Shown here piece by piece: positions 9,332-34,700 of a stretch of 64,000 nt of DNA. Origin of the DNA: Oculina patagonica (lineage: Eukaryota); contig NC_135760.1 of the NCBI RefSeq assembly GCF_052425735.1, positions 28,947,074 through 29,011,073 on the forward strand. Direction: 5' to 3'. The translations under genes were made by a program, and so were the position numbers. Numbering within the stretch: position 1 is the stretch's first letter; each line of letters opens with the position of its first letter. The notes under the pieces are model-generated. The model ran no database searches. It saw nothing but the letters and a program-made list of their open reading frames with translations, and had not been told where the DNA came from.

Positions 9332-11407
9332 ATGGAATCGAAAACCATAGACAGAGACGCCGTACTAAATTCACTCGCTTTAAACAACTCGACAACAGAT
9401 GGGCAACCCAGAAAAAGAAAAAGACTTGACAATTTATCTGCCGAAGAAAGAGCCCTTCGAAGGTAAGTTACAATATGGCCTTTTGACGATTCTCTCTCAG
9501 CATAGCTTATATGGCTTGTAACAACTGAATTTTTGGTATCGAATGTCTAACTTAAGTATTTCTCTGAATAATCTGCTTACTGAATGAATGATAAAGCGTT
9601 GTTTGTGATTTTGTTTTGTTCAGAAAACTAAAGAATCGTGTGGCTGCTCAAACTGCTCGCGACAGGAAGAAGGCACGAATGACGGAACTCGAGGAGATCG
9701 TCGCACAGTTAGAACAAGAGGTGACATTAATCATATTGTCCAGTGTCTTTCCTCAACCGCTCTTTAACAGTGATCGTGAACTTATACCAGTATTCTCTAA
9801 TAATTTTGAACGGACGTTTTTGTTCCGATATGTAGATGACGAAGGATCGAGAACAAAGAAAGCTTTATAGCTCAGGCTAATCTTAAATTTAAAAAAAAAA
9901 TACAGAGCAAAATGCTTAAATGTCTTTCGTTTTCTGTGATTACATTTCTTTCAAACCCTCTAATGGAGCAACTTTTTCCCTTCGACTGGAGCTGGAATAT
10001 TTAATGGAATATAAATGGAGGAACAGTTTGCCTGTACCCGATAGCCATGTCAAGTTTACCTAAGCGCAGATTTCACAACCAGTTTTTTTAAGGAAGCAAA
10101 TTTATTTAGGCCCTAATATTGCTAGGTATTAATCAAAGGTCTTCTCTTGTGTGTATGCCATTCAAGCCAAATGTCTTTATTTATTTCAGAATAAAGCTCT
10201 TCGCACAGACAATGAAAGTCTAAGAAAACATTCAGAGGCAATGACAATTGAAAATTCCGAGTTGAGAGTTCGTCTTGGCCTCACACCTCCAGTATCGCCA
10301 GAGCCAGTCACCAAGCACACATACCCACCAAGTCCAGAAACAAGTTCAGTTGTGATCAAGAAAGAAGCAGAATGTAACGAGTATGCATCACTCTTAGTTT
10401 CTCAGCAGCAGGAACGCCTGATTCTGTTTCTTTCTCTGATCACGACTTGGATGACGATCAACAGCAGGTAATAATGAATCATTTGTAATAGAATTTCTTA
10501 TTTGAAATTTTGTAGCAAAGCCAAACTCTCAAATTTAGACAAGGTGGCTTGATCATGCTTTGAAACAAGCTGGAACTTATTGCTACAAGGTGCACAAAGC
10601 AGCTGGTGAAAATTTTACTTCCCACTTGCTCTACTGTTTAAATTTATTGCGACCTGAAAGTGATCAACCAAGCTGGGATGTGTTTTGCACCTAATAAGTG
10701 GTTTCCAGGTTACACATGTCTTACAATGGAATTTAATCACTATTGCGACAACAAAAAAATGATAGTCCAGCTGATGTGATGCTTGTGGGAGGATAAATTT
10801 GCATGGTAGTGTGTCAGCTGTGTAAACTGCATTTCATTGTGCTTTCATTTAACTTTTGCAAGTGTTCTATACACTAGTTATGTATGTAAGGTTCTCCTTA
10901 TTTGAAATTCCATGAACTTTTTTTGGTTTAATTGTTGTATGAATGTTGTTAAGAGAATTCATTACAGAATATGATTAGGGTTTTTTACAGTTTTGAAGAA
11001 ACAAAGACACAGTAGTGACATTATGATGAAAGTGTTGTGTTTGTTTCACTTCCCAGCCTGACATGGATTTTGGCTTTCTTGAATTTGATGAAGAAAGAGA
11101 ACCACAAGCCCTTATTCAGCCCAAGCAGGAAGCCAAGTCAGGCTCAACCTGCTGTCAGCATAGCACCTTCTCAGCCACAAAGGATGAAGACGACAACACA
11201 GTCCCAGAATCGAGCAGCAGTGACATAACAGTAGCAGATTTGGTTGGAATGGACTGTGAGGCTTTTAATTCGTTGGATGATATCTTGAATCTCAAAGATT
11301 TCTCTGAGGAGTTCAAAGAACTTGATGTTGAACCTGGAATGTTAGGTTGTGAAATGTGGGAGGAAACCTTCACAGAAGTATTGTTCCCATCCCTTCTGGC
11401 CGTCTAA
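9332..11407 (+). CDS. XBP1: X-box binding protein 1 (XBP1) ortholog, bZIP UPR transcription factor. Spliced-form CDS is join(9332..9462,9624..9720,10190..10405,10465..10467,11057..11407). The unspliced XBP1u frame stops at 11228.
   Basis: Exons 1-3 encode ...[80 protein letters not shown]. Human XBP1 reads [42 protein letters not shown]...ENQELRQRLG. GT-AG introns lie at 9463-9623, 9721-10189 and 10468-11056. The exon 4 +1 frame ends ...WEETFTEVLFPSLLAV*, matching the human XBP1s C-terminus ...WEDTFANELFPQLISV. The exon 4 unspliced frame gives a hydrophobic SLTWILAFLNLM followed by a basic tail, which is XBP1u HR2-like. Confidence 0.9.
10406..10464 (+). other. XBP1: Predicted IRE1-dependent unconventional (non-spliceosomal) intron of XBP1 mRNA, 59 nt, between twin CAGCAGC loops
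   Basis: The 5' site is the hairpin uuuCU[CAG|CAGC]AGgaa at 10398-10414, a 7-nt loop with the conserved C(-3), G(-1) and G(+3). The 3' site is the CAG|CAG loop at 10462-10467, whose 7th nt and 3' stem come from exon 4 after conventional splicing. It is the only G|C junction that lands in the conserved XBP1s frame. Length is 2 mod 3, as required for the u-to-s frame switch. The exact 5' cut could be 3 nt further 3' because of the CAG triplet repeat. Confidence 0.4.
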
Positions 11408-12627
11408 ATTTATAGATTAAAAAGTCTGTTTGTAAGTCTTACAAAGGTATAATAAGGCACATATTTTATCCTTAGAACAAGACTGACAAATCAACTGTAT
11501 AGTCTGTATACACAGGGGGTTTTAGTGGCCCCACTGGACTCTGGATGGAGTGCTCCAGGTAAGAGCCCTGGCTGCCTGAACAAGTGTTCTGGTGCAAGCC
11601 ACATTTACTCTCCCAGTGGCTCTTTCCACCCAGGTGTTTAAATGTGCAGTAGCAAATGTACTGCTAAAGGTAAACCCTGCAATAGACCTGGCATCCTGAT
11701 CCAGGGACAGTAGTTAAGTGCTGGTCTGGTAAGCCACCAAGGCTTGAAGAGAGACTTAAACTTGGCCTTTTTATGGTCTTGTTCTGTACTTAAGCGTCCT
11801 GCCAAGCATCATGTAACACCATAAAGGAGTAGAAATTGGCAGTTAATCACATTCTCATTTCAGATTTAAAGGGGTTTCAAATAATAATAATAGTAATAAT
11901 GCAACAGTATTAAAGAAGAAAATATTAGATGTAAAGTATTTTACACAAGATGCATGCATGTGCGAAAACAGTGAAACTGGGATAATCATTAACCAGAAAA
12001 CCAATGTAAAAAGTATATTATGTTAAATATACACTCGAATAGCTCTTAACAATGTCTCTTAATGATAATTTTTTGTATATTTCTTGTAATTTAGGGGCTC
12101 TGGCCCTCCTTTTTTTTTTTTTAAACAAGAAATTGTCCCAACTGTTCCCCCTTCCCTGCCATTTGGGTAATTTATTGTAACTCAGGGAACTTGACTTCTG
12201 TGATGGTTTCCTATTATTAATGACTGTTAAATAGCAGTGGTCTCACATTGATCAATAAAAATATTCATGGGTTACTTTGGTTGCATTCTGTTTGATTTGA
12301 CGTAACGAACACTAGTCACTGGCAATACAACAATAATTATTGACTACAAGCTCAAAGTTTTCTCTAAGTTAATAGTCATTGCAGTGAACCCAAGTTGACT
12401 GTTGCTCATAGAAAACAATGGGTGAGTAGTCTTATTGTGAGTAGTAGGCAAAAACATACAATTATTTTATGCATTTTTAAGCTAAATTTATAAATATTTT
12501 CCATGCACTCATGATCTATCAATGAAGAGACAACAATGGGAGTGCCAATTACTGTAGAACATGTTTATGTCTGCAAAATAAGACAGCCACTTTTTCTTGA
12601 CACGTCCTGCAATCACTCTGCTGCTGT

Positions 12628-12785
12628 GGCAGACTCGTTCCCAGTCCCTACTTATTTGTTCCTAAGACGATAAAAGACTGGGGCAGAATGAGGCGAGGGT
12701 TATGGGGCAGGCTGGGAAGACCGTCCCTTGATGCAATGCGTTCTAGTCAAAACTGCCTCGGAGCGACTGGGAACGAGTCTGCTGC
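12628..12785. repeat. Short inverted-repeat (hairpin) element in the XBP1 3' flank
   Basis: ggcagactcgttcccagtc ... gactgggaacgagtctgc, about 19-bp arms about 120 bp apart. Confidence 0.45.
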
Positions 12786-13978
12786 TGGGGTAAACATGAA
12801 CTCGCTTGTACTTCCAAACTTACTCGTGTTATCATCAGGATCTGCAAACATACATTATCTTTGACTACTTTTAAAAACGTTGATAGTAAGCTACAGATCT
12901 TTGGCACACGAGTTAAAACACCACAGGAAAAGCATGCAGTCCTCAGAACATCAAAATTTTTTTTTGCAACTTGAGGAAATTATTGTGGGAATTGAAGAAA
13001 TCCTGAAAATATCTGGATCAGGCTTGAATGGGTTACAAACCCATGACCTCAGTGACACTGGTGTAGTGGATGTTTGCTCTACTGCTCTCAAGGGGGTTTT
13101 GGTGTGGAGAGAAATGTTCATTCTCTCACAGACAAGGATTAATTTTTGTCTGATTTCCCAGTTAACATTCGGGTCACATCATTTATGGTCTTTTAACGTC
13201 CCTTCAATCAATAAATAACTCAAGTGCAGATGATTGCAGAAACATTGACCCACATAAAAACAAAATGTCTATTATTTTTCACATGGCTCGTTTTTCTTTG
13301 TTCTTCCAGACTGAATATATTGAATAAACCCCGCTAATTAGTAACTCTGAGAAGATGGGGGGCGGCTTTGATTATAAACGGGAGAGCGGGGCTGATATTA
13401 TATCTCCCTTCGGAATATTAGAGCTGATAATCCCCTAGGGTAATATTACAGTAATATTCCCCTCTCGCAACATAATAATAATATAATAATTTAATACTTA
13501 TTCGGCGCAAATTAGCATGTGAATATGATCAAATGCGCAACACACCCATACGGATTGCATCTCACAAACAAAACCATACTTTGATAACGTTACATTTATT
13601 TTGCCTAGACTGGTGTTACATAAATACTACTGAGCAGTTGTTCCTTGCCTCGACGTTTGCTTTCTCAGAATATCCAATTCCCTCTATAATGCACGCCTGC
13701 AGGGAATCACGGTAGTTGTGTTCGTCGTTGCTAAGTCGCGCGTGCAACTACCGTGATTCCCTGTAGGCACGCGCTATGCAGTGTACCGTATTTACTCGAA
13801 TAAGCGCCGCCCCGAATAAGCGCGATGCGGCGCATATTTGAGGAATTCCGTTTGACTAAAAACAGCACTACAAAGCAACTCTAAAATAAACTTGGACATT
13901 TCTTTCCATCAAAAGCGATGTTTTGCAGCTCAAAGTGATTGTTTTACCGCTCGCCCATAGTTTTTCTAGACATTCTTA

Positions 13979-16871: not shown

Positions 16872-18881
16872 TTACGATATGTAGTATTGTCAATGTTGTC
16901 AAGGCCGAGGAATTTGCCAAGACAGCTAGCGCCACTTATTTCTTCAGCAAGAGACAATCTTTGTGGAGCGCCGCCCTCAAATAATTATTCGAGTAAATAC
17001 GGTATTCCGTTCGGTTACCTACTCATTCCAAACATTCAAACACCAAAAGGTTACCTTTTCAGTGTTCAGTTTGATCCTTTTAATACTATTCCTGGCCAGG
17101 GGCTCTTTGTCATCTACGACGATAATGTCGTTTGGTATCAGGTTGTTTCGCCCGTTCGCCGGCTGAGACGTTTCGCCCGATCCCCGATCTCAGAGTCGAT
17201 TCCACCGAAGAAAAAGTCGATTCGCCCGGATCAACATCTTGGTTAAACAAAATGTTTTGGTGGCTTAGCTTCAACAAACATACAGCAATAATGCCAGTTG
17301 ATCGTTGAGTTTCTTGTAAACAAACGCTGCTCATTTTGTCAATGTTTGCGGTTTTATATTCTTGTTTCAATCCCTTTTCCGGGTTGAGTGGCTCATAGCA
17401 GCTTTGTTGGGGATTTTGCAAGCCAGTGCGTTTTACATAAATTTTATGAGCAAACTGTCGCAGAATTTTCAATATATACATAATTTGTCTGGATTTATTA
17501 AAACCAGGTCAAAGAAAAGTGACCGAAATCTTCTTGCTCATGTGCGTTAGAGTGCGCCAAGAAAAAAGGAAAAACAACGCTGAAAGAGACACGAGAGAGA
17601 ACTGAGGAGAGAAAGACCGACATTCCCTTTAGTTTTCATATCGCGTTTACACGTTTACAGCGCTTTGCGCTTAAAACGGTGAAATTTTCATTAACCTGGT
17701 TTTGATAAATCCAGAAATTTACATACTTATATTAAAATCAAGTCAGACAGAAGTACAGTTGAATAACGATAACTCAAACCTTCAAGGGAAATCGAAAAGG
17801 GTTCGAATTATCGGGGGTTCGAGTTAGCGAGTATAAAATTTATTAGAAGGAAGGGGAATCGAAAAAGGTTCGAGTTAGCGGGAGGTTCGAGTTATTGAGG
17901 GTTCTAGTTATCGGAATTCAACTGTACAATGTCTGCAGAGTTCAAGGCAAGCTAAACCCTATTTGGCAGTTTATATGTCTTCGGCTGCAAAAAGTCTGAC
18001 TCTGTCAATTTTGAATGATCCTCGCAGTGTATAAGCAAACTACAACGGCTACAACTCCCAATTTTTTTTTGCCAATTTCAAGACTACAACTACCAATTTT
18101 GTTGAAAAAATAGCTAGTCTTGCTATATTAACAAGTCGAAATACGAATGGCGCGTGAAAAGATACAGCAACAAAATATTTAATGAGAGCTTTATTATTCC
18201 AAGGTTCACCTTTACTGTATAATGCCAAGGTTTTCTTACCTAAAATCTAAACTATGCACTGTGTTATCTGTGTTGCACACAGTTGAGAGAATTAAGCAGG
18301 GACTACAACTTATAAGTATTTTAAGTGTACTACTGGCTCCAGCAGATGTAATAAGCAATAGTCTATCAAAGTGTTGGTTTATCTGTTTCAGTTGGTTTGC
18401 AACTGTTGTTTGTGTCAAAAGGGTTAGATAAAACATGCAGCTACAATCAGTGCGAGAACTCGATGCCACAATGTCCAAATTTCCTGTTTTGAATAGCACT
18501 GATTGCTTCATTATTCATTAAACCGCACAACACTACATGTATAACCAGGTACGGTGATTGTGACGTCTTAATTTCTGCTATATGCATAATAATGTTGCAA
18601 CTAAGAATTCTCAGACACATTACCTTTGCTTTTGTTGGTGATATGAAACGTTTTCAACAAAAATGTATTCATACTGAACAGTAAGAACAATTAATTTAGT
18701 GTGCGTTGAAAGCACAGGTGTCACTCAAATGAGCTTATTAACATGGCTTACAATACTTGCGATCTTGCCGTCTTTGGCTTTCTATCAAAGTTACAATAGC
18801 CTTGACAGTGAATGAATACAAAAAACCTGCAAAGCATTAGCCTGTTCCAGGCTTTCAGTTAGTGAGGGACGGTGCTTAAAG

Positions 18882-18975
18882 AAAAACGGCGAGCGAAAAA
18901 ATAGGAAGGGGGCTGGGGTGTGGAGAGGGAAATTTCCTCTCTCCTCCCCTCCTTATTTTTTCGCGCGCCGTTTTC
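18882..18975. mobile_element. Palindromic MITE whose termini (aaaacggcgagcgaaaaaatagg.agggg) match the TIRs of the 29101-30640 element
   Basis: aaaaacggcgagcgaaaaaataggaaggggg...cccctccttattttttcgcgcgccgtttt. Confidence 0.5.
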
Positions 18976-18996
18976 CTCTTTCACCGCTGTTCTTTT

Positions 18997-19104
18997 AGCC
19001 TGCGAGAGCAGACGCATTTCCGGCCGTCGCTTCTCTCCGCCGAAAAATAGCTATTTTTCGGCGGAGAGAAGCGACGGCCGGAAATGCGTCTGCTCTCGCA
19101 GGCT
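18997..19104. repeat. Near-perfect 53-bp-arm palindrome downstream of the MVP 3' end
   Basis: agcctgcgagagcagacgcatttccggccgtcgcttctctccgccgaaaaatagc|tatttttcggcggagagaagcgacggccggaaatgcgtctgctctcgcaggct. Confidence 0.7.
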
Positions 19105-19570
19105 ACTGTTCTTTGGGCCGTATGACATCAGAATACTGTCAGAGGTGGTCAAACCCTATTATTGACCTTCACAGAGATGTTATTTTGTTTGTTTGTAAAA
19201 TCTCTATAGCCTGCGTTGCAGCCGGACGTGTCACAGAATCCTCGAGATAGTCCGGCGGTTTAGACAGTCTGCGACGCTGGCTAAATCAGTACAGCCATAA
19301 CTGAAAAGTTATTTGTCAACATAACTGCAGTAGCTGTGATAAAATTACAAAGACAGGAAACCCTGATAAGTATTCTAAGTTGCAACCTAAGAAGTATTCA
19401 TTTCTGCTACTGGTGACTGCAGATTGAAGACAATTCTTATACAAAGTCCCCTAAATAATAAAAGTCCATACTGGCCTAATTCTAATATTAATTTAATATT
19501 TGCTAAACGTTAAACGTAACAAGGATAATTGACTTGACCTAACCATACAATTTAGGTGTTACTGTATTAT

Positions 19571-19720: not shown

Positions 19721-22700
19721 CTGCAACACGATCAACAGTTCATCTTATCAACTGGAGATGGAGCGGTTTTTCAATTGAGTGTAAAAAAGGAAAGAAACTT
19801 AGGTGATCATTCTGGCCAATCACAATGGGCACAAACAATCCATTGATCCAGTCAAAATGTTAGACTGCAAAACAGTCGTTTTTTTCCTCTAACTTCGTTA
19901 ACAATCGCTTAACAAGGGCACGATCGTCTCGTGGACTCACACGTGCAGTCCGTTTTGAAATTGCATTCAGACCTCTTGTTCAAAGACCGAGCGTGTTTGC
20001 ACAAATTGACTGTTTCATAGTCCAGTCAAAATTAAAAGCAAATACATGCAGCCTGTGCGAAGTGTGGGAATCCGTGCGAGCAAGTCACGATTGGTTTTGG
20101 TTTTTTTTTTTTGGATTAAAAAGTGGCGAAAGACTTTTCAAACCAATCACTAAGCGAAGCAGTGCAAAACCAAAGCAAATGCGAGTTAATTCCGATACTC
20201 AGGTGAAAAACCGCTAACATGCTTGTAAAGCAGTGAGATCACAAACAAAAGTCAGTGTGTCTCGGGAAAAAAAAACAAGACAAAAAACAAGACAATGTTT
20301 GTAGATTATCAGTAGTAAGGTACAAACCTGCATCTCTGGTCCAGCGGTGGCTATTGCCTGAATAGTATCAGAACCAATAGATGACACCATGTTCTTAAAT
20401 TTCTCTGTCTCAATGCCTGCCATCTCTTTGGCCTTGGTTACATCCAAGGTGTTCTGTTCATGCTGGTACTTCAACTCCGCCTCCCTTGTTTTACTGAGAC
20501 GCTGCAGTTCAGATTCCTTTTAAAAAGAAATAGAACAACTCAAAAAATTAAGTTTGTTCACACTGAACTCTCATGTTGCAGTTCATAAAAAAATCACAGA
20601 GCAGGAACGATCCAACGAAACAAATCATCTCCACCTCCCACCTTCTTGGAATTAATGATCGAATTTGATCTGTTCGCTGTTTATAGAACATATCAAGAAC
20701 AAGAAATTATTGTGCCATGTGTCCATTTTTTCATAAATTAGACAGTTCTAAGAATCAAACTTCAATTGTGATCTACGTTGAGCAAATTAGGGTGCAAAGT
20801 TGCATCCAAAAGAACATCCATTGATAAGCCAAGAGCTTATTTTTGTGTTAAACGGCTTTTCAAATGGGAATTTGCGTTTCAAAAAACTTTGGGTTTTTTA
20901 TTTGGATGGAAGACCCTCTAAACATAACGAAACAAATATAACAACTGACTGAGCGTTCTCTTACTGAATGTAAAATACAAAAATAGCCCTGATGGGAGAG
21001 AAATGTATTAGTTCAACAATCATTGATTATCATGTGCCGTTTGACCTGAGTTTATCTTTGTACACCATTGTACACCCATTGTGTTATTTATATCAACAGA
21101 ATATGACTCTTTATATCGAAACAAAAACTCTAATGCATAAAGTGTACATTTCGATTTCGTTTGTAATGAGGTTTCTACTTTTTCCGTTTGACAAGAATGT
21201 TGCCTGATAAACTGGCAGAGCAAAATGATCATTTGTTTATCATATAGTTTAACTGCATCTAAAAAACAAACCAGACATTAGTAATAACAGTTCCTTGACA
21301 AGATTCAGCACATAACCATGTTATTCACTTTTTCCTGTATATGAATTAATATTCTGCATTTATTAATATGAATGTGAACATGTTTTGTCCAAGTTATAAC
21401 ACAAATAACAAGTTATCATAGTAAACTCAGAGACTCAAAGGACAGTGCAGAATGCAATATGGCCAACAATTGACAGCATGATAATAATTTTCCAGGGTAA
21501 TTTCGCTTGAGAATAAGTCAAATGAGATCACCTTTCAGTCTGAAACGCTGTTTCATCTGTACTTGTAAGATGTGGAAAGACCAAACGTGACAACTAAATC
21601 ACGCGACACCTTCATCCAGGAAAAGATTTCCCTTTTTGAAAAGTCACACACGCGGCCGACCAGTTGACACAATTAAGAGTCGATTTTTTAGTAAAGGAAG
21701 TTTTCAATCATTTGAACCGTTGTGTTTTACGTAAACTTTCGTTGATTTGAGAGTTTTTAAGCAGCAAACGCGATACTTTTACTTTTCGTGCAAACTTTTG
21801 TAACATGAGTCTAATTTAAGTCTAATTTAATTAACGCCACGGATTCTACAAGAATCATACCGCATTGAAAAGCACACCACGTTGGACTTTGATACAAACT
21901 TTCTAAACACGTCTCTGTTATTTTAATTTTCGTTAGTTTGAATTCAGTTTGATATTGAAACAGCAAACGTGATATTTGTGCTTTGCGTGCAAAGTTTTGT
22001 AACATGATACCTTTGTTTTTCTCTTAGACTGCTATGATGCCTTAAAGTCTAATTAAATTAACGCCACGGATTCTACAAGAATTCTACCGCATTGAAAAGC
22101 ACATCACGTTAGACTTTGATACAAAATTTCTAAACGCGTCTCTGTTATTTTAATTTTCGTTAGTTTTTATTCAGTTTGACATTGAAACAGCAAACGTGAT
22201 ATTTGTGCTTTTCGTGCAAAGGTTTGTAACATGATACAAGTCTAATTAAATTAACTCTACGGATTCTACAAGAATCCTACCGCATTGAAAAGCACACCAC
22301 GTTAGGCTTTGATACAAAATTTCTAAACACGTCCCTGCTGTTTTAATTTTTGTTAGTTTGAATTTCAGTTTGAAATTGAAACAGCAAACGAGATAATTTC
22401 CTTTTCCTTGAAAACGAATGTAACATGATACCGTTGTTTTTGTCGAAAACGGATGTAACGTGATGACATGGTAACGTGATTTATTTTCTGCAAAGAGGGC
22501 GACATCGATTATAACACAGATATTATCGATTAATTTAAGAATTTGGTTTTTCTGAATTATGAGATGCTACAACAGAGCATCTACATGTATTCAAAGAAAA
22601 CAGCATTGCCATAACAAGAATTATTTCACATGAACTGCTATGACGCCTTAATGTCTAATTCAATTAATTTGCAGTTTTAACTTGGCGCCACGTAGTCTAC

Positions 22701-25700: not shown

Positions 25701-28700
25701 CTTGTTTGTTAATAACAAACTGTGATACTGTAAGTAGAAAACTAAATCTACAAGTTTAAGCAGAGAAGTAATGTGTTTTAGCGGATTGTTTTTGGTAAAT
25801 TTGGTATTCTAAAGGCGCTGACCTGCTTTGCTATATGTCGATAACAAGTTTTGATGTATTATTCACGAAAAAATAACTTTTAGTGCCTGTCCGTTGGCGG
25901 TTTCAAAGTGTCCGTTGTCCATCTTAGAGAGGTGTCCGTCTTACAGAGAGTTTTCTTACAGTAAAATGACTGAAAAACGGCAGGGACCATACCCAGGTGT
26001 CCGTCTTATGGAGGTGTCCGTCTTATAGAGGTGTCCGTTAAGAGAGAGTTGACTGTAAACTTATTCAGATTTGTTAGTCTTCCTTTTTGGGTATCCGTAA
26101 CACAAATTGATTGGAAGGGTGGTTGAACACAATTTACAGACAAAAGGAAAAGACTGAACTTGATGTACACCAAATTGTGGCTTGTTTCTATACAGCATGT
26201 TTGTCCCGAAAGGATCTTGAGGTAATGCAAGGGCAGGACAGGGACAGCTTAATCTCTTATTTAATGCACTGTAGATGCTACCCTAAACTTCCAATCACCC
26301 TTTGTTTTGCATTTCATCATAGTTAGCCCAGTGCTTTTGACAAAGATTGTAGAAACATCTATCATTGAACAAGATGTTTGTCACGAGACAAACTAAAGTG
26401 TCAGTCGTTAAAGCACACTACTGGACGGGCGCAACTGAAATTAAGGAAAATATGAAAAAAAACATCTAAAAAAGTGGATGGACTAAACATAACACAGCAA
26501 ATACAAAAGAAGGTGTGGGTGCACAAAATCAGAAGATTAAAATGGAATGTGATGTGGGTTTTTAAAAAACTGTAAGTCTGAACAGTTTTCAAAGTTAATG
26601 TTTGATTGTTAATTTGTTACCTTTTGTCACAACATTTCTAATGAAGCTATGGTTTTGTCATTTGGATCTTTAGAAGACATTTCTCTGCTGCGACATTAAG
26701 TTTCACAATTGGCTAATATTTGGCAAACAGCCGTGCTTCATTGACGCTACCAAAGACAGTATTTTATAACATCCAAGCACACACCATGAATTGGGTAAAA
26801 AAAAAGCACTGTAAAAAATCTGATGCTGATAATGCCTTTTGTCAGTTTAATTTTTAAATATGTACCTGGCAGTCTTCTCTTTGTAGTCATATATCTGCAC
26901 TGCTGCATTATGAGGCACTCTGAACGTAACAACTCTGGTTTTGTTCCTCCCAAATTCACTTCTGGGTTCTCTTTGTACTGCAAAGTATTAATACATCAGT
27001 GTACCCCAAATAAAACTTGCATCGTGATGAAAATTGTTTTCATCCAATGCAAATGATAAAAGCAAGAAAAAAAAAAGCATTTTAAATTTTCAGGGACTTA
27101 AAAACTGGAGAGCTAGGCTGGCATGCCTTCATGAAAACAAAACAAAACAATCAAATCAATCTACTTATGATTAATATATATATATATATGCACACAAGGC
27201 AAAAAATATGATAAAAATTAACCTACGCTTTGTAATCAGCAACAGCAGTGTTGATCGAGTTACTTAATAGTTCTTAATTATGCCTAATAAAAAGTAATAA
27301 TATATCGAACTCAATACAATATTTGGAAAATGTTGATTAACAAGTTAGCAATACAAAGTTAGATAATAATAATTAGTGATTAACTTCTTGTTCTGCAATC
27401 TTTCACTTGAAGTACTAAGTGTCTTTATATATAATTATTCAAAGGCTCAATTAAACCTGCAATTACTCTGCCTTGGGTATCATTGAAAATAACTATTCTT
27501 CCTGCAGAACTTTATAAGTGACATCTTTTTGTTTAAGGAAAATAATGTCCTCAGAAATAAAACAAAGGCCCACACTAGCCACAAGTGTTAGTTTTTTAGT
27601 GTTAGGTTGTTTCAGGTATAAGGGGGTAAAAACAATGTGCATTATAAGGGGTGGTGAATGGTCCTTCAAAAATGGCGTGTCTCGCAAAATTTTAGCTAAA
27701 TTTCAAGGGTCTCGTCGTCTCGAATTTTTCTTTGATGCCTTCTCGGAGTCTTGATTTCTTTTGCAGGGCTAAAAAGCTCTCAAAGGATCTCGGGCTCGCA
27801 GAAAAGATATCAGTCTCGCCGTCTCGCAAAGTCTCGCATTTACCATTCGACACCCCTATTATAGAAAGTAATGGGAGAAAGAGTAGGGATAATGTGCACT
27901 GAATCTTTTTTGCCTATCCAATATCTTTTTGTGGTTGGGCCGATCTTTCAACGATGTGCAATTTTCCCCCCAAAATCAACAAATATATCTAAAATTAATC
28001 ATTCACCTTTTAAAGGGCCTTTCATACGTCTCGGTGAACTAGACTGCTGTGTATTGGAAAATTCATCCCATTGGTTGGACATTGCCTGCATGGCTGGGAA
28101 ACCTTGAAAAAATTTAAAGATATAATTCACCTTGAAAAACATTGATGTAAGCTGGCCAGAGATATGAGAGAGAGGTAAGTAAGTCAGTGACCCAAGCTAC
28201 TTGGAATTTCTTTATCCAAATTCACCTAAACATAAAATTCAAACGTACAACCTTCCATGCACTGGTTTGATGCTCTACCACTGAATTACAGGCAAATGCT
28301 GGGAGAGGGGCATTCTACCTACAATAGAGGACACACTTGTTGGGATAGATAACGTCCCCAGTATCCTCCCGACATTGGTGTGCTAGTTATCATTAACATA
28401 ATTAAATGCAATAAACAAAAGAAGAAACGGAAAGGAGGGTGTATGGAGTGTCAACAACAATAATTGTGGCAGGTGCATTGTATGTTTATAATAAATGTGA
28501 CAAACTCCGTCTAACATGGCCTAATTAATGCACACGGGACTCCTAGGCCTGTTGCTTGGTTTCTATTTATTGCCTTAGGTTACATGAGATACACTGACGA
28601 AGGACCAACTTTAACCAAGGAAGTGATAGCATTTCCAGAAATTGGAGTGACCTTGTAAGTATCTCCTGTTTTTCTCCTGGACACTGCCAATTATTTTGCT

Positions 28701-31700
28701 TCTCACAATTTAAGGCCTGCTTGACTGCTTTTCCAAGTTTTTTTTCTGATGTAATGTATAAAAACAGTTTAACTCTAAGGGTTCAACTTTTAAGCTTCTT
28801 GTTATTCCCATTATTACCCCAATCACAAGTGTTATCACCCTGTCACAAGTGTTATCACCCTGTCACAAGTGTTATCACCCAGTCACAAGTGTTATCACCC
28901 AGTCACAAGTGTTATCACCCAGTCACAAGTGTTATCACCCTGTCACAAGTGTTATCACCCAGTCACAAGTGTTATCACCCTGTCACAAGTGTTATCACCC
29001 AGTCACAAGTGTTATCACCCTGTCACAAGTGTTATCACCCTGTCACAAGTGTTATCACCCTGTCACAAGTGTCATCACCCAGTCACAAGTGTCATCACCC
29101 AAAAAACGGCGAGCGAAAAAAATAAGGGGAGGGGGGCGGGGAGGAGGGCGAGCGAGAGAACGCCTGTGAGCATTCATAACAAAAAGGTCTTTCCGCCCAC
29201 TTCTAGACCTCCGACAGGGCCCGGGTAACATGAGCGCAGACATTGAAGCTTGTGGTTTTCAGTTGTCAGTTTCAATCAGATTTCTGACAGATTTCCCGGT
29301 AAATATTATTTCTTAAGTTCTTCCACGTTGGGAAATGCATTTTATCGTCTGCGTTTAAATGTCTGCACTCGGAGTCTTCTGCAAGCGAATTCGCCGAATT
29401 GTCAGTCCGCCCTTCAACGTGTTGCAGGTTTTGTCAAAAAATGTTAAGTGCCAGGGGAACAAGGTACCGAGAGTTTCTTTATTTAATTCGGTTTCAAGCA
29501 AAGATTTAGTTTGGTTTTCTGGAGCCGAGAGTCTGGTGTTGGCCGACCTCGCACGTTCTTTTGGACATGAACTGAATCCCAACCCACGTTTTCCTGAAAT
29601 TTGCTGTTTAACCTGCGCAAGAACACTTGCAAGAACTCATGCCAGCGTTCAAAAAGTATTCTCGAGGATTGTCGAAAGAGAAACGTCTTAAAAGCGGCAA
29701 GTGAATGCAAGATCGCCGACGGGAGAAACTCCCTCCGCGAAGCGTTCACACACTTCAGAAAATGAATCTACAAGTACATCAACCACACAAAGTAGATCGC
29801 GGCGCTGCTTGGCTCTGGGTGAAAGCTATTTTGGACCAGATTGATTCAGCAATGAATATTGACGTGGAACAAACTGTTATCAAGATGAGTTTTACCGCTA
29901 CTGTTTACAAATATTTTCGAGGCCGTTTGAATTCGCCCGGAATTTTCTCGTTGCTGTTTTACGCTTTTCAGTTTCAGAATGTTTTAGCTTATGTTGTTTT
30001 GATTGTCTGCTGGCTAAAGCCTGTTTGAATTCCTGGCTGAGAGTTTCGAGGAATAAATAGCAATTTGTCAATAATACAAGCATTTACAAATTTATCTTTT
30101 TGACGGACCGCATTCGACTTCACTTGTAACGTGTTGTTTTAATATTTATTTTAAGACTAGAAAGTGCTTTATCGCATGTATATTTATTTTAGCGAAGCTT
30201 TGGTTATTGTATTTACTGAAAAGCAATTATCGTTGAAACTGTGTCAGTTTGATTTAGCGTCGACATAACACGCGGAAACAGTTGAAATATCAGACTCTTT
30301 CCAAAACCGGTTGGAAGTATACTGAAAAACTTCTCCTTCATAGACCAAATTAAACAGTCTTCCTGTTCTTTGCGAAGACTTTCAACCAGAAAATCCTTCA
30401 GTGCGTTGTTTACTGCTGAGTTGAACTCTGCGTGACCGTCACTCGCCGCAGCCATATCTCATTTCACTTCAAGATGAAGGACGCTTGAGTGTTGACAAAA
30501 GGTGTCAAAATTGACCAATCAAAGGGTATACCAGAATCTGGTATACCGGAACTAGCTTTTGTTAAAAATGCTCACAGGCGTTCTCTCGCCCCCTCGCCTT
30601 AGTCCCCTCCCCATTTTTTCGCTCGCCGCTCCTCGCGCCGCTTCCCAACTAACCGAATGCCTGGAACAGGCTACCCAGTCACAAGTGTCATCACCCTGTC
30701 ACAAGTGTTATCACCCTGTCACAAGTGTTATCACCCTGTCACAAGTGTTATCACCCAGTCACAAGTGTTATCACCCTGTCACAAGTTTTATCACTCTGTC
30801 ACAAGTGTTATCACCCTGTCACAAGTGTTATCACCCAGTCACAAGTGTTATCACCCTGTCACAAGTGTTATCACCCAGTCACAAATGTTATCACCCAGTC
30901 ACAAGTGTGATCACCCAGTCACAAGTGTTATCACCCTGTCACAAGTGTTATCACCCTGTCACAATTGTTATCACCCAGTCACAAGTGTTATCACCCTGTC
31001 ACAAGTGTTATCACCCAGTCACAAGTGTTATCACCCAGTCACAAGTGTTAACACCCTGTCACAAGTGTTATCACCCAGTCACAAGTGTTATCACCCAGTC
31101 ACAAGTGTTATCACCCAGTCACAAGTGTTATAACTCAGTCAAAGTTTATCATCCTGTCACAAGTGTTATCACCCAGTCACAAGTGTCATCACCCTGTCAC
31201 AAGTGTCATCACCCTGTCACAAGTGTTATCACTCAGTCACAAGTGTTATCATCCTGTCACAAGTGTTATCACCCAGTCACAAGTGTCATCACCCTGTCAC
31301 AAGTGTCATCACCCTGTCACAAGTGTTATCACCCAGTCACAAGTGTTATCACCCAGTCACAAGTGTTATCACCCAGTCACAAGTGTTATCAACCAGTCAC
31401 AAGTGTTATCAACCAGTCACAAGTGTTATCACCCTGTCACAAGTGTTATCACCCTGTCACGAGTGTTATCACCCTGTCACGAGTGTTAACACCCTGTAAC
31501 AAGTGTTATCACCCAGTCACAAGTGTTATCACCCTGTCACGAGTGTTATCACCCTGTCACAAGTGTTAACACCCAGTCACAAGTGTTATCACCCTGTCAC
31601 GAGTGTTAACACCCAGTCACAAGTGTTATCACCCAGCCACAAGTGTTACCACCCTGTCACAAGTGTTATCACCCTGTCACAAGTGTTATCACCCTGTCAA

Positions 31701-34700
31701 AAACCTTACTAGATATCTCTGGTACAACAACATTCCTTGTGCCACGGTCAGCCAGGGGATCCTTTCCTCCTGCAAGAAGTTGTTCAACAGTTGGAGGTAG
31801 TTCCTTTTCCCAGAGTTCTTCATCATGGGTCAACATATATGTCTGACCACAGACAGCTCTCACTCTTCCAGTCTTAATGTCCCGAATATAAATTCCTTCA
31901 TTCTCATCCAGGGGAATGGCTTTCCTTCGTGCAACAACCTCAACTTCAACAGGAGGAACATATTCACTGGGGCCACGGATCATCCAACGATCACCAGGAC
32001 GTCTTGGTACCTCTTTCTGCACAAAGAGTTACTTAACATTCAATAATGATAAGGTCCTACTGAAACTAGCTGCCTCTACAGATAACTCCACTGCCGAGGG
32101 GAAGACTAGTCAGGAATGAATAAAAGAGAGATGAACAAGAAAGACTCACTACCAAATGAGTGTCCCTGGTTTGTTCGAGATAGGATAATATGCGAGCCAG
32201 AAATCCCAAATCACAATAACAGGCTAACCACAAGCTACCTAAACTAACTGTAGGCTAACCAGATCTAGATTGAGTACTATTTAGGCTATCCAGAGTGCTA
32301 TGTAGGCTAACCCAGGGCTTTGCTCTAAGGGTGCCCAGGTGCCTCAGGCGACTAACTTTTGTCTTTAGGTGACCAGATAATCTTATTTCTTTCATATATT
32401 ATAAGCTTTATGCTGGGCACCCTGGATCTCAAAGGTTAGAACTTTTGGGCTCCTTGTAATTTTTCTAAGAGCACAGCCTTGCTAACCAATGTGCTATTTA
32501 GGCTAACCTCAGTTCACAAGACTTGCATGACTCGCGAACCATGCAAACCATGTGAGCCAGAAATCCCTAATCCCAACAAAAGGCTATCCGCAAGCTACCT
32601 AAGCCAACCATAGGCTAACCAGAGTGCTATTTCGGCTAACCAATGTGCTATTTAGGCTAAACGAAATGGCTCGCATGGCTAACTGGCTCGCATTCTGGAC
32701 CCATTTGTTCCTTGAGTGGGACAGGATAGGGAGAGTTTAGAAAACCTTTAAGAGTACACAATTGAAAAGTGGCACATCATAGTTAAAGTGCACCTAACCC
32801 CTATTTAATTTTTTTAATTTTTTAATTTGAAAATACTTGTTTTCTAGAGTACGTCACTGAAAAATTTTTTTGATTTGGTTAAATCCTTGATTTTCTACAA
32901 CCCACTGAATGTGGGGGTGGTTTGGCCCAGTACCAAGCAAACAGGGGTCTGGAACAAGCTGGAACGTGTTTGGAGTTGTGACATAGTTTCAGGAACTGCA
33001 ATCAATCCTTATGCTTTCTGATACACTTTCTCACATTTGCTTATACCGGAATAGCTAAATTACATCCATTCTGTCAATGCTAAAACTTCTATATTTTACA
33101 ATGTCATCCTCTGAAGATTCGGATGGAATCCACAGGAACTTCGAATGCGAGAAAGAACTAGAAAGTGACGCCATCCATAAGCCATGACGCTGAGACATTT
33201 GTGTCACCGAAATACGGTATAACATGAAGAGAAATTTTTCTCTTCACGTCCTTGACATTGCCACAGGTTGCGGCTAGGCACCGGGCAGGCATGGATAGAT
33301 ATCTCGCTCGATTCGCACTCGTCTAAGAGAAAATCAGTCGATACACACAAGATGCCGCGAATGCGGGTTTCTAAAACGTCACGTTAGGTCAAAGCACGTG
33401 ACTAGACCCATGCCTCTTGGTACTCAGTAGTGGGCTAAGCAAAGCTCTGTTTTGGTGGGGTCTTTTAAAATTTCAATAGGACAGAGAATCAAAGGCTCTT
33501 CGAGCAACCTCATGGTAATTTGATGAATGAAAAGCCGACCTCCGCATTTTTTTCTAAATAAGTGTCCAATAAAGTAAAGCAATCTCACTCTGATTTATTC
33601 TTTCGGCGTGAGTTGCGTCATTGATGACTCGTGCTCTCAGGCGTCGTAGCGCTATTCAGTTTTCACAACCAAAATATTTACCGGTTAGTGTATTACCTTT
33701 GATCCTTTTAAGCATTAAGTAAATTTATTTTGTGAATATTTTTACTTTTCTGTCAGCACGTATAGCGTTATTTTTAAGCAGCGGATAAAATTTGAGAGAA
33801 AAGATACGCCCAAGCACTTCGTATATCTACTCGACTCAAAAAGATGAAAAACGGATGACGTGACATGAGGTGACGTGATGCGAAATAAAAACGTGCCGTG
33901 GATGTGGTGTTAACTAAAACACGTCACATGGCGAGCGTAATAATTTTGTATAACAATTTAAGCGTAACTATATGTAGTTCATAGCTGCTATCAGTAATGT
34001 CACAATCTCACTTAATTTGTCTTTGAATGTTTTCATGAGGTGACGTGATGCGAAATAAAAACGTGCCGTGGATGTGGTGTTAACTAAAACACGTCACATG
34101 GCGAGCGTAATAATTTTGTATAACAATTTAAGCGTAACTATATGTAGTTCATAGCTGCTATCAGTAATGTCACAATCTCACTTAATTTGTCTTTGAATGT
34201 TTTCTTGTGTGAATTGGTCGATGATAGTTTTTTTCTTCAAATAAGCGTTCAATAATGTAACACAATCCCTGTGAATGTTTTATTTTTCCATGGGAATTGC
34301 GTCATTGATGGTTCGTGCTCTCAGGCTTCGTAGCGCAGATTCTATTTAATCACAAAAATACTTAAGTGTAACCTTTGATCCTTTTTAGTATTAAAAAAAA
34401 TTGTTTTGTGAATATGTTTACTTTTCTGCCAGCACGTATAGCGTTATTTTGAGCAGCGAATAAAATTTGAGAGAAAGAAGCGCGTTTCTGCACGACTCAA
34501 AAAGATGAAGAACGGATGACGTGACACGAAGATGATGTGACGCGAAACAGAAACGTGCATGAATGTTGTGTTTACTAAAACGCGTCACATGGCAAGCGTA
34601 AATGTTTTCTTACGTGAATGAGTCATTGATAGCCTATGCTCTGAGGCTTCGTAGAGCGAATTATTCTCTTTTATCACCAGAGGATAAGTGTAACTGATCC

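Follow-up and report, generated by a model that had tools for sequence, protein, structure and literature searches.

Within a 64,000-nt stretch of the Oculina patagonica genome (hereafter the window), intron 9 of the MVP gene holds a 20-bp tandem array that nearly touches a splice donor and is split by an inserted element with a piece of a RecQ-like helicase inside it. The question raised by this locus is whether the array, the element and the helicase piece belong together or came to lie side by side by separate routes. Our analysis indicates that the intron very probably records two unrelated and ordinary mutational events stacked on one another, an array that grew in place and then the insertion of a defective AcademH-type transposon. 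The features on which this reading is built are collected in Table 1.

Table 1. Positions of the array, the inserted element and the neighboring MVP exons in the window.
Feature	Position	Strand	Details	Basis
MVP coding exon 10	26866..26977	-		BLAST to orthologous locus L008; acceptor and reading frame; tblastn
MVP coding exon 9	31710..32019	-	Vault / Vault_4 repeat; donor GT at 31709-31708	Pfam, translation, exon map
Minisatellite, distal part	28823..29100	.	13.9 copies of a 20-bp unit, ACWGGGTGATAACACTTGTG on the sense strand	TRF and pattern matches
Minisatellite, proximal part	30674..31699	.	About 51 units; start is sense-strand intron position +11	TRF and pattern matches
Non-autonomous AcademH-type DNA transposon	29101..30673	-	1,573 bp; strand is that of the helicase ORF	Full-length L002 copy, right-end L001 copy, family termini and TSDs
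Remnant of left 9-bp TSD CCCAGTCAC	29098..29100	.	CCC	Inferred from right TSD and in-phase reconstruction
Left TIR, inner part only	29101..29184	.	First bases AAAAAACGGCGAGCG	Inverted-repeat searches; comparison with L002 terminus
Probable start of second inward-reading gene	29420..29691	+	Decayed, frameshifted; CCRFC...LFN... motif	ORF list, zinc-finger-like N-terminus
N-terminal exon of transposon RecQ-like SF2 helicase	30213..30455	-	80-aa ORF; motif 0 and motif I	ORF list, homologues, alignments
Right TIR, complete	30557..30673	.	Ends ...GCCTGGAACAGGCTA	Inverted-repeat searches, copy comparison, family termini
Right 9-bp TSD CCCAGTCAC	30674..30682	.	Satellite sequence	Position of conserved terminus, TSDs of other copies, reconstruction
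Another relic from this TIR family	18838..19114	.	Starts with TAGCCTGTTCCAGGC at 18838	Inverted-repeat and sequence comparison
Nested 110-bp hairpin element in this relic	18996-19105		TAGCCTGCGAG...CTCGCAGGCTA; perfect 9-bp TSD CTGTTCTTT	

A minisatellite beside the exon 9 donor

The exon next to the array was matched by the Pfam families Vault_4 (E=2.8e-23) and Vault, and the closest named MVP match was a Nematostella vectensis fragment with 86% identity; the window's exon 9 ORF itself had no database record. Its number, 9, is a count of coding exons made by tblastn with an MVP probe. The donor sequence is GTAAGG, and the phase 1 intron that follows (26978-31709) measures 4.7 kb, compared with about 1.2 kb at the orthologous locus L008. 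Scanning the intron against Rfam and for tRNAs returned nothing, and no repeat in its remainder beyond the array (26978-28822) recurred in other parts of the window or among the fetched loci.

Tandem Repeats Finder (TRF) resolved the array into two period-20 blocks, 28823-29100 (13.9 copies, 96% matches) and 30673-31699 (51.5 copies, 92% matches), which run head-to-tail and together make 65.4 copies. A search with the pattern CACAAGTGTTATCACCCWGT allowing up to 3 mismatches yielded 64 matches against a chance expectation of 0.01; all of them were at the MVP intron 9 locus, with none in other parts of the window. The array is therefore a minisatellite in the usual sense, with head-to-tail units in the 10-100-bp range at a single locus. 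Its last full unit ends at 31697, 12 bp from exon 9, which places the array edge 10-12 bp from the donor. The sequence-only reading, made from the letters of this DNA before the present analysis, had described an array of about 65 units in just this position, and the TRF counts confirm it. Variants of the unit are grouped in local runs. On the MVP sense strand each unit has one GGG run, a CAG/G and a G/GTGAT, and 51 units contain TTATCA, which is TGATAA on that strand.

The long open reading frames that run through the array are artefacts of translation, as had been proposed: no candidate homologue of the periodic peptide was found among 5.8 billion proteins. A two-unit DNA pattern gave 0 matches to metagenome contigs, a weak negative because short-read assemblies seldom retain such arrays.

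Orthologous introns of three related species indicate where the array came from. No tandem repeat was detected in the intron of L015 (91.6% nucleotide identity in the exon), of L009-L014 (92.6%; six independent assemblies, with TRF run on L010 as their representative) or of L008 (85.7%). Moreover, L015 reads GTAAGGCATTTT-ACGGGGTGATAACATTAATATG-ACTAGGGTAAAAACAGGAATAACTGGAAGCTT, a single unit between matches to both flanks of the window array, and this proto-unit already contains TGATAA. The closest relatives are represented by short-read contigs, so collapse of an array in them is conceivable, yet these contigs are unbroken across the site and carry a diverged unit sequence. Because the array is missing from all three species and one of them has a lone proto-unit, it appears to have grown in place at this intron. 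A 20-bp stretch starting 11 nt past the exon 9 donor would have been amplified to about 65 copies, likely by replication slippage or unequal exchange, and the amplification would be confined to the lineage of this genome. The array thus resembles other intronic minisatellites (VNTRs) in its local tandem amplification, 20-bp unit, copy number, unit variants and single-copy progenitor in a relative, but it differs from them generally in beginning so unusually near a splice donor (+11).

An inserted element and its family

Between its two blocks the array is interrupted by a 1,573-bp insert (29101-30673), and the boundaries at 29100/30674 are as first drawn. Subtraction of the insert and one copy of the target-site duplication (TSD) restores a perfect 20-bp phase, and the rare unit variant GTGTCATC stands on both sides of the break, in agreement with the proposal that the array was once continuous. 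The insert had also been credited with 75-bp inverted termini (29101-29175 and 30566-30640). Inverted termini are indeed present (one search gave 43 nt at 86% along with shorter arms, another gave 78 nt at 78%, E=5e-11), but their limits were drawn too short, with the right terminal inverted repeat (TIR) reaching 30673. Set against the L002 terminus, the left TIR of the window copy is short by its outer ~37 bp, and most of the TSD on that side appears to be gone as well; what survives of the duplication is the complete right copy and 3 nt of its partner.

Members of the element's family share the termini TAGCCTGTTCCAGGC...GGCTA (right end GCCTGGAACAGGCTA), TIRs of about 120 bp (76-130 bp) and TSDs of 9 bp. 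Its nearest relatives are a full-length copy, L002, with 83-93% identity to the window element, and a right-end copy, L001, with 98.4%; both lie in unrelated flanks containing no satellite. Perfect 9-bp duplications flank the copies in L003 (TACAGAAAT), L004 (TGCATAAGT), L007 (CTCTTGTGT) and L005 (TCAGTTGTT), and 7 of 9 positions match in L002. All TSDs observed for the family are 9 bp long and of mutually unrelated sequence. Since the satellite was absent at six other element copies, it was, in line with the sequence-only reading, the target of the insertion and not a component of the element.

Two other interpretations of the insertion site were considered and rejected. A 4-bp duplication of ACCC (29097-29100 and 30673-30676), of the kind expected for AcademX, Sola or Ginger, fails because other copies show the A at 30673 to be the last base of the element and the left end to be truncated. 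A TA target of the Tc1/mariner type, proposed from the TA before every terminus, fails because the perfect 9-bp duplications put this TA inside the element.

The helicase gene and the probable AcademH assignment

The 80-aa helicase ORF stops just short of motif Ia, and no further helicase sequence was found in the window by tblastn. Homologues of it numbered 42; full-length relatives measure 560-620 aa and combine a DEAD domain with a Helicase_C domain. A profile of the family (A2) matched only RecQ-family chains in the PDB (RecQ, BLM, WRN, RECQ1, RECQ4 and RECQ5), which bears out the earlier description of the motif as RecQ-type. The fragment includes the gene start with its ATG, shows 41-76% amino-acid identity among copies, and starts about 220 bp inward from one particular terminus in all copies, across at least five assemblies. 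L006 has this terminus too, with helicase residues 1-164 and 158-414 behind it. The initial view of an isolated fragment derived from a donor gene is therefore not upheld: the start lies at a fixed distance from the terminus, in L006 it leads on into a longer gene for a helicase, and curated AcademH elements share the layout, with the ATG of AcademH-6_ADi about 165 bp inside its TAGCCTG terminus. Judging from this constant position, the long gene and the curated layout, the fragment is evidently the first exon of a helicase gene that belongs to the transposon itself.

AcademH elements are characterized by 9-10-bp TSDs, 5'-pyrimidine/3'-purine termini and TIRs sometimes longer than 100 bp; they encode a RecQ-related helicase and a transposase in opposite directions, and non-autonomous families occur in cnidarians (Kojima 2020, Mobile DNA 11:15, PMC7165386). 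The present family corresponds to this description on several counts. Duplications of 9 bp were found in L003, L004, L005 and L007, and CTGTTCTTT lies on both sides of the element nested in the window relic. The copies have TIRs and a common terminus, 5' pyrimidine and 3' purine, and the curated termini of AcademH-6_ADi (TAGCCTGTGTAC...), N12_ADi (TAGCCTGCGAGC...), N2_ExPa and N1_OrFa (TAGCCTGCGTAGC...) all open with TAGCCTG. The helicase is represented by its 80-aa start in the window and by the longer gene in L006, and its first exon is also retained in the non-autonomous N3_OrFa, N11_ADi and N2_ExPa. The match of the helicase to AcademH-6_ADi itself (E=4e-40, about 30-36% identity) is no higher than to cellular RecQ and so does not discriminate.

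No significant tblastn match to Academ transposase cores (Academ-3_ADi and Academ-2_CGi) was obtained in the fetched loci including L006, the complete copies all being non-autonomous and L006 incomplete within 20 kb; nor did Pfam detect a transposase domain among the L006 ORFs. No DNA similarity to curated non-autonomous families extends past the first 7-11 terminal bases, and when five consensus sequences of curated non-autonomous AcademH elements were compared at the DNA level and by tblastx, only chance-level matches came up. On the basis of TSD length, termini and helicase layout, the family is probably best placed in AcademH, the lineage of the Academ superfamily that encodes a helicase. 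It would share with the anthozoan families N12_ADi, N2_ExPa, N1_OrFa, N3_OrFa and N11_ADi, and with the parent-type AcademH-6_ADi, the 9-bp duplications, T...A termini opening with TAGCCTG, TIRs of ~100 bp or more, a helicase start directed inward 165-220 bp inside one terminus, and short derivatives (0.7-1.6 kb) that keep the first exon. It differs from the published families in its terminal sequence past base 8 (TAGCCTGTTCCAGGC) and in an interior without DNA similarity to them, and the window copy differs from the references in having no left terminus.

Elements of the window copy's size would be internal-deletion derivatives that retain both ends of a parent, and with them the 5' ends of the two genes that read inward from there. 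The second of these genes, presumably the transposase, probably begins with the ORF marked by CCRFC...CLTCAR. Pfam found nothing above its cut-offs among the interior ORFs of the element, the 29420-29691 frame giving a weak zf-AD match below cut-off (E=0.045). The CCRFC...LFN... layout of this frame recurs in L003, L004 and L007, and the CRFC...CLTCAR N-terminus resembles the ORF starts of AcademH-4_ADi and AcademH-7_ADi, qualitatively only.

Order of events, rival explanations and significance

The events most plausibly occurred in the order array, insertion, deletion. Following amplification, a non-autonomous transposon of ~1.6 kb would have entered the array by cut-and-paste, duplicating the 9-bp target CCCAGTCAC. 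A later deletion of ~43 bp may then have trimmed the left TIR by its outer ~37 bp and taken most of the left TSD with it, leaving a copy that could no longer be mobilized. The helicase ORF of this copy is cut short as well.

Several other explanations of the locus were weighed. A TIR element that had captured a piece of a host RecQ helicase, for instance a transduplicator resembling Pack-MULEs, would account for a mere fragment in a short element without an observed transposase, and Mutator-like elements also typically have long TIRs and 9-bp duplications. Captured pieces should be host-derived and vary between copies, whereas here a gene start with its ATG occupies the same offset in all of them, its position conserved across species; the L006 terminus precedes a much longer helicase gene and curated AcademH elements are arranged identically, so that capture of a host exon is distinctly improbable. 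The unobserved transposase also leaves room for another superfamily with 9-bp duplications (Mutator or Merlin) or for KolobokH, which likewise encodes a helicase (Kojima, PMC7165386). We nevertheless regard such an assignment as unlikely, given that the TAGCCTG terminus is common to several curated AcademH families. Kolobok elements duplicate TTAA, and the family's unrelated 9-bp duplications do not conform to this.

An array made or carried by the transposon would explain why satellite abuts both ends of the insert, but this origin is scarcely credible: six other copies lie in unrelated flanks, the window contains no units outside this locus, and in L015 both array flanks are contiguous around one unit. 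That the array is a functional module, either a group of binding sites for GATA factors or a regulator of splicing beside the exon 9 donor in the intron, has in its favor the 20-bp phasing of so many hexamers from 11 nt off the donor. The sequence-only reading had put these at about 65 phased GATA-like sites; 51 TGATAA were counted, and they would be copies of one ancestral hexamer carried along with the unit. The motif was there before the array, in the single-copy ancestor, the conservation in relatives expected of a GATA cluster is absent (L015, L009-L014 and L008 have no array), unit variants accumulate freely (92-96% matches) and a transposon insertion was tolerated mid-array. Such a module is consequently very improbable, and the array and insertion, stacked as two independent events, are ordinary genome wear with no sign of function. 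It is likewise very doubtful that the lineage-specific array alters MVP expression or exon 9-10 splicing, with its length as a tunable allele, or that short AcademH derivatives keep the helicase first exon to serve a need in cis or for the peptide.

The significance of the locus beyond annotation is slight. In annotating this genome, one should treat the RecQ-like fragment as transposon sequence to be masked, not as a helicase pseudogene or captured gene, and should make no gene calls on the periodic ORFs of the array. A widely distributed terminus type (TAGCCTGTTCCAGGC, 9-bp TSD) is added to the sparsely described AcademH lineage, and an autonomous copy, if found, would be useful for the catalogue of the Academ superfamily. 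The locus also offers what seems a clean case of a single 20-bp unit in an intron giving rise to a minisatellite. As a minor observation, the sense strand of this minisatellite presents, near a constitutive donor, about 65 G-triplets, 51 TGATAA and as many splice-like CAG/G and G/GTGAT motifs.

An interrupted minisatellite in MVP intron 9

The locus is a lineage-specific intronic minisatellite that holds a dead, truncated, non-autonomous transposon of the AcademH type, the helicase-carrying lineage of the Academ superfamily. Both components belong to kinds already known. The sequence-only reading of this DNA described the array, its break and its exon context correctly, while its interpretation held only in part.

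The MVP gene was mapped by tblastn using a human MVP sequence, which served as a probe only. Sixteen coding segments were placed from 43173 down to 19625, the array-adjoining exon being the ninth. The exon 9 donor is GTAAGG (GT at 31709-31708) and exon 10 is preceded by the acceptor TTTGCAG, so that intron 9 spans 26978-31709 (phase 1). Read on the sense strand, the array starts at intron position +11; TRF, Pfam and the tblastn exon map confirm its earlier placement beside the exon 9 donor. A pattern search of the window for the unit CACAAGTGTTATCACCCWGT gave 64 matches at ≤3 mismatches, all at the array locus, with 0.01 expected by chance. The periodic ORFs through the array (up to 336 aa) are artefacts of a unit lacking plus-strand stop codons, as had been proposed, and a protein search with the periodic peptide found no homologue. 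A database protein (P0265) deposited as a 'colicin uptake protein' of Alteromonas sp. ZYF713 is an MVP fragment sharing 70% identity with the exon 9 peptide, and is probably eukaryotic contamination of a bacterial assembly.

Features of the locus, copies of the transposon family at other loci (L001-L007) and orthologous MVP loci in relatives (L008-L015)
Feature	Position	Strand	Details
MVP coding exon 9	31710-32019	minus	Pfam Vault_4, E=2.8e-23; translation reads ...PEIS
MVP coding exon 10	26977-26866	minus	
20-bp array, distal block	28823-29100		13.9 copies, 96% matches (TRF)
20-bp array, proximal block	30673-31699		51.5 copies, 92% matches (TRF)
80-aa helicase ORF	30213-30455	minus	window element
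Frameshifted ORF	29420-29691	plus	opposite end of window element; CCRFC...LFN... pattern
L001			Logan contig; right 826 bp of element, 98.4% identity
L002			NCBI GCA_044670265.1; full copy, 83-93% identity
L003, L004, L005, L007			ENA assemblies; more distant copies, 1.2-1.75 kb
L006 (ENA ERZ25067546 ctg58771)	9778-13400		family terminus, then much longer RecQ-like helicase gene
L015			exon 9 nucleotide identity 91.6%
L009-L014			six independent assemblies; exon 9 nucleotide identity 92.6%
L008			exon 9 nucleotide identity 85.7%; next three exons align too

Origin of the array and its possible function

A search with the exon 9 peptide yielded orthologous loci from related genomes, and TRF found no tandem repeat in the orthologous intron 9 of the three loci analyzed (L015, L010 and L008). 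The L009-L014 loci share an identical alignment to the window, all ending at one point just past the donor. In L015 the intron starts with GTAAGGCATTTT ACGGGGTGATAACATTAATATG ACTAGGGTAAAAACAGGAATAACTGGAAGCTT; the window counterpart reads GTAAGGTTTTTG, followed by about 65 copies of ACAGGGTGATAACACTTGTG and then by ATTGGGGTAATAATGGGAATAACAAGAAGCTT. In L015 both array flanks join directly around a single unit, an arrangement characteristic of in-place amplification. The distal flank (GGGGTAATAA, TGGGAATAAC) resembles a set of older, degenerate units, which might have seeded slippage. The closest relatives are represented by short-read contigs, in which an array could have collapsed, but this is unlikely since the contigs run unbroken across the site and hold diverged unit sequence. 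Intron 9 is fourfold longer in the window (4.7 kb) than in L008 (∼1.2 kb, 10280-11469), with array and transposon making up 2.9 kb of the difference. The ∼1.8 kb at 26978-28822 had no match among the fetched loci or in the rest of the window.

Could the array instead be a GATA cluster or splicing element? The GATA core reported for each of about 65 units is real, but TTATCA (sense TGATAA) is present in only 51 of them, and TGATAA was already there in the single-copy ancestor of the unit. The array is absent from relatives, its units drift, a 1.6-kb insertion has been tolerated within it, and Rfam and tRNA scans of intron 9 found nothing; these observations lend no support to such a role, which is highly improbable.

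Boundaries and classification of the insert

As first noted, the array is interrupted at 29100/30674; the insert is 1,573 bp long. Its inverted termini comprise 43 nt at 86% plus shorter arms, or 78 nt at 78% (E=5e-11) in a second comparison. End alignment of the copies placed the true family termini at TAGCCTGTTCCAGGC... and ...GCCTGGAACAGGCTA, with TIRs of 76-130 bp. L002, L003, L004, L005, L007 and the window element have nearly the same sequence over their outermost 15 bp. Perfect 9-bp TSDs flank four copies (TACAGAAAT in L003, TGCATAAGT in L004, CTCTTGTGT in L007 and TCAGTTGTT in L005), and 7 of 9 positions match in L002. The window copy has an intact right end (GGCTA ends at 30673), and its left end begins AAAAAACGGCGAGCG, ∼37 bp inside the TIR. 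Of the 75-bp-TIR element with a RecQ-like fragment originally described, the RecQ type stands and the terminus limits do not. Immediately past the right end come the 9 bp CCCAGTCAC, and the last bases of the left flank are ...CATCACCC; taking out the insert plus one CCCAGTCAC leaves exact 20-bp array spacing across the junction. An uncommon unit variant, GTGTCATC, is present on both sides of the break. In the simplest history, the array would already have existed when the transposon entered it and created a 9-bp TSD, and a later ∼43-bp deletion would have taken away the outer left TIR together with 5-6 bp of the left TSD. That the satellite was the insertion target and not an element component, as suggested earlier, is borne out by the flanks of the L001-L005 and L007 copies, in which no satellite was seen. 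A 4-bp repeat, ACCC, at both insert junctions was set aside as a by-product of the left truncation.

AcademH elements are defined by 9-10-bp TSDs, termini with a 5' pyrimidine and a 3' purine, TIRs sometimes >100 bp, and a DDE transposase and RecQ-related SF2 helicase in opposite directions; corals and sea anemones carry non-autonomous families (Kojima 2020, PMC7165386). Three of these four features (TSD, termini, long TIRs) are found in the window family, the fourth being the transposase part of the gene pair; queries with the Academ-3_ADi and Academ-2_CGi cores gave no Academ transposase match in any fetched locus. The first heptamer of the family also begins several AcademH families (supplementary sequences, PMC7165386): the 7.1-kb AcademH-6_ADi (TAGCCTGTGTACAGCC...CACAGGCTA), AcademH-N12_ADi (TAGCCTGCGAGC...), AcademH-N2_ExPa and AcademH-N1_OrFa (TAGCCTGCGTAGC...), and AcademH-N8_ADi (TAGCCTCGGAGC, 9-bp TSDs). 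Beyond the termini, no DNA similarity to published AcademH families was found. Translation of the 1.9-kb end of AcademH-6_ADi revealed a helicase whose start lies ∼165 bp in from the terminus; this helicase (...GKNVYASLSTGDGKSLIFFAAPVL...ILVISPL...) matches P0105, a protein found in our database searches, at E=4e-40. The short families N3_OrFa, N11_ADi and N2_ExPa keep the helicase first exon, as does the window element. On these sequence comparisons, the element quite probably represents a new non-autonomous family of the AcademH type. KolobokH is excluded as its lineage because Kolobok elements make TTAA target duplications, versus 9 bp in this family; a Mutator-like assignment is unlikely.

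The helicase fragment and related repeats

Querying the protein collection with the 80-aa ORF returned 42 short ORFs, whose encoding contigs yielded the further element copies. In alignment, these ORFs correspond to the N-terminal part of a RecQ-type helicase (consensus ...STIIVVSPLVSVMRDQVEQLK). Among solved structures their profile matched RecQ, RECQ1, RECQ4, RECQ5, BLM and WRN only (best E 1.7e-13), and in a 1.84-billion-protein library it retrieved 560-620-aa proteins with DEAD and Helicase_C domains that match BLM, WRN and RecQ at ∼1e-43. All copies have the ATG ∼220 bp in from the same terminus, with the gene running towards the element's interior. L006 continues from this terminus into helicase residues 1-164, then a reverse-transcriptase insertion (RVT_1, ∼10500-12630) and then residues 158-414; neither a matching right TIR nor an Academ transposase was found in this 20-kb locus, which may be a decayed autonomous copy. 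The window ORF stops just short of motif Ia, and tblastn found no further helicase sequence in the window. Given the fixed ATG offset, the longer L006 gene and this early stop, the fragment is, judging from the alignments, the first exon of a helicase that belongs to the transposon itself, kept in an internal-deletion derivative and now decayed, and not a piece of a host donor gene as initially thought. The exon is kept in all short derivatives (1.2-1.75 kb; L002-L005, L007 and the window; at least five assemblies), and these shared gene starts likely reflect repeated formation of internal-deletion derivatives.

At the opposite end, the CCRFC...LFN... pattern recurs in L003, L004 and L007. A CR[FL]C zinc-finger-like start is present in four of the six copies examined and is not visible in L002 and L005. 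The window ORF, with a below-cut-off zf-AD Pfam match (E=0.045), is probably the start of a second inward-reading gene.

Another relic belonging to the window element's TIR family is found at 18838-19114, ∼500 bp past the final mapped coding exon of MVP (19726-19625); it begins TAGCCTGTTCCAGGC at 18838 and its right end is diverged or truncated. Nested in it is a 110-bp perfect-hairpin element (18996-19105) with an exact 9-bp TSD, CTGTTCTTT, and termini (TAGCCTGCGAG) like those of AcademH-N12_ADi. Elsewhere in MVP, a 227-bp unit (1.9 copies, 93% identity) lies between coding exons 14 and 15 (21818-22237), and intron 8 contains a 170-bp unit exactly twice at 100% identity (33864-34204, TRF score 682), apparently a tandem duplication of very recent date.
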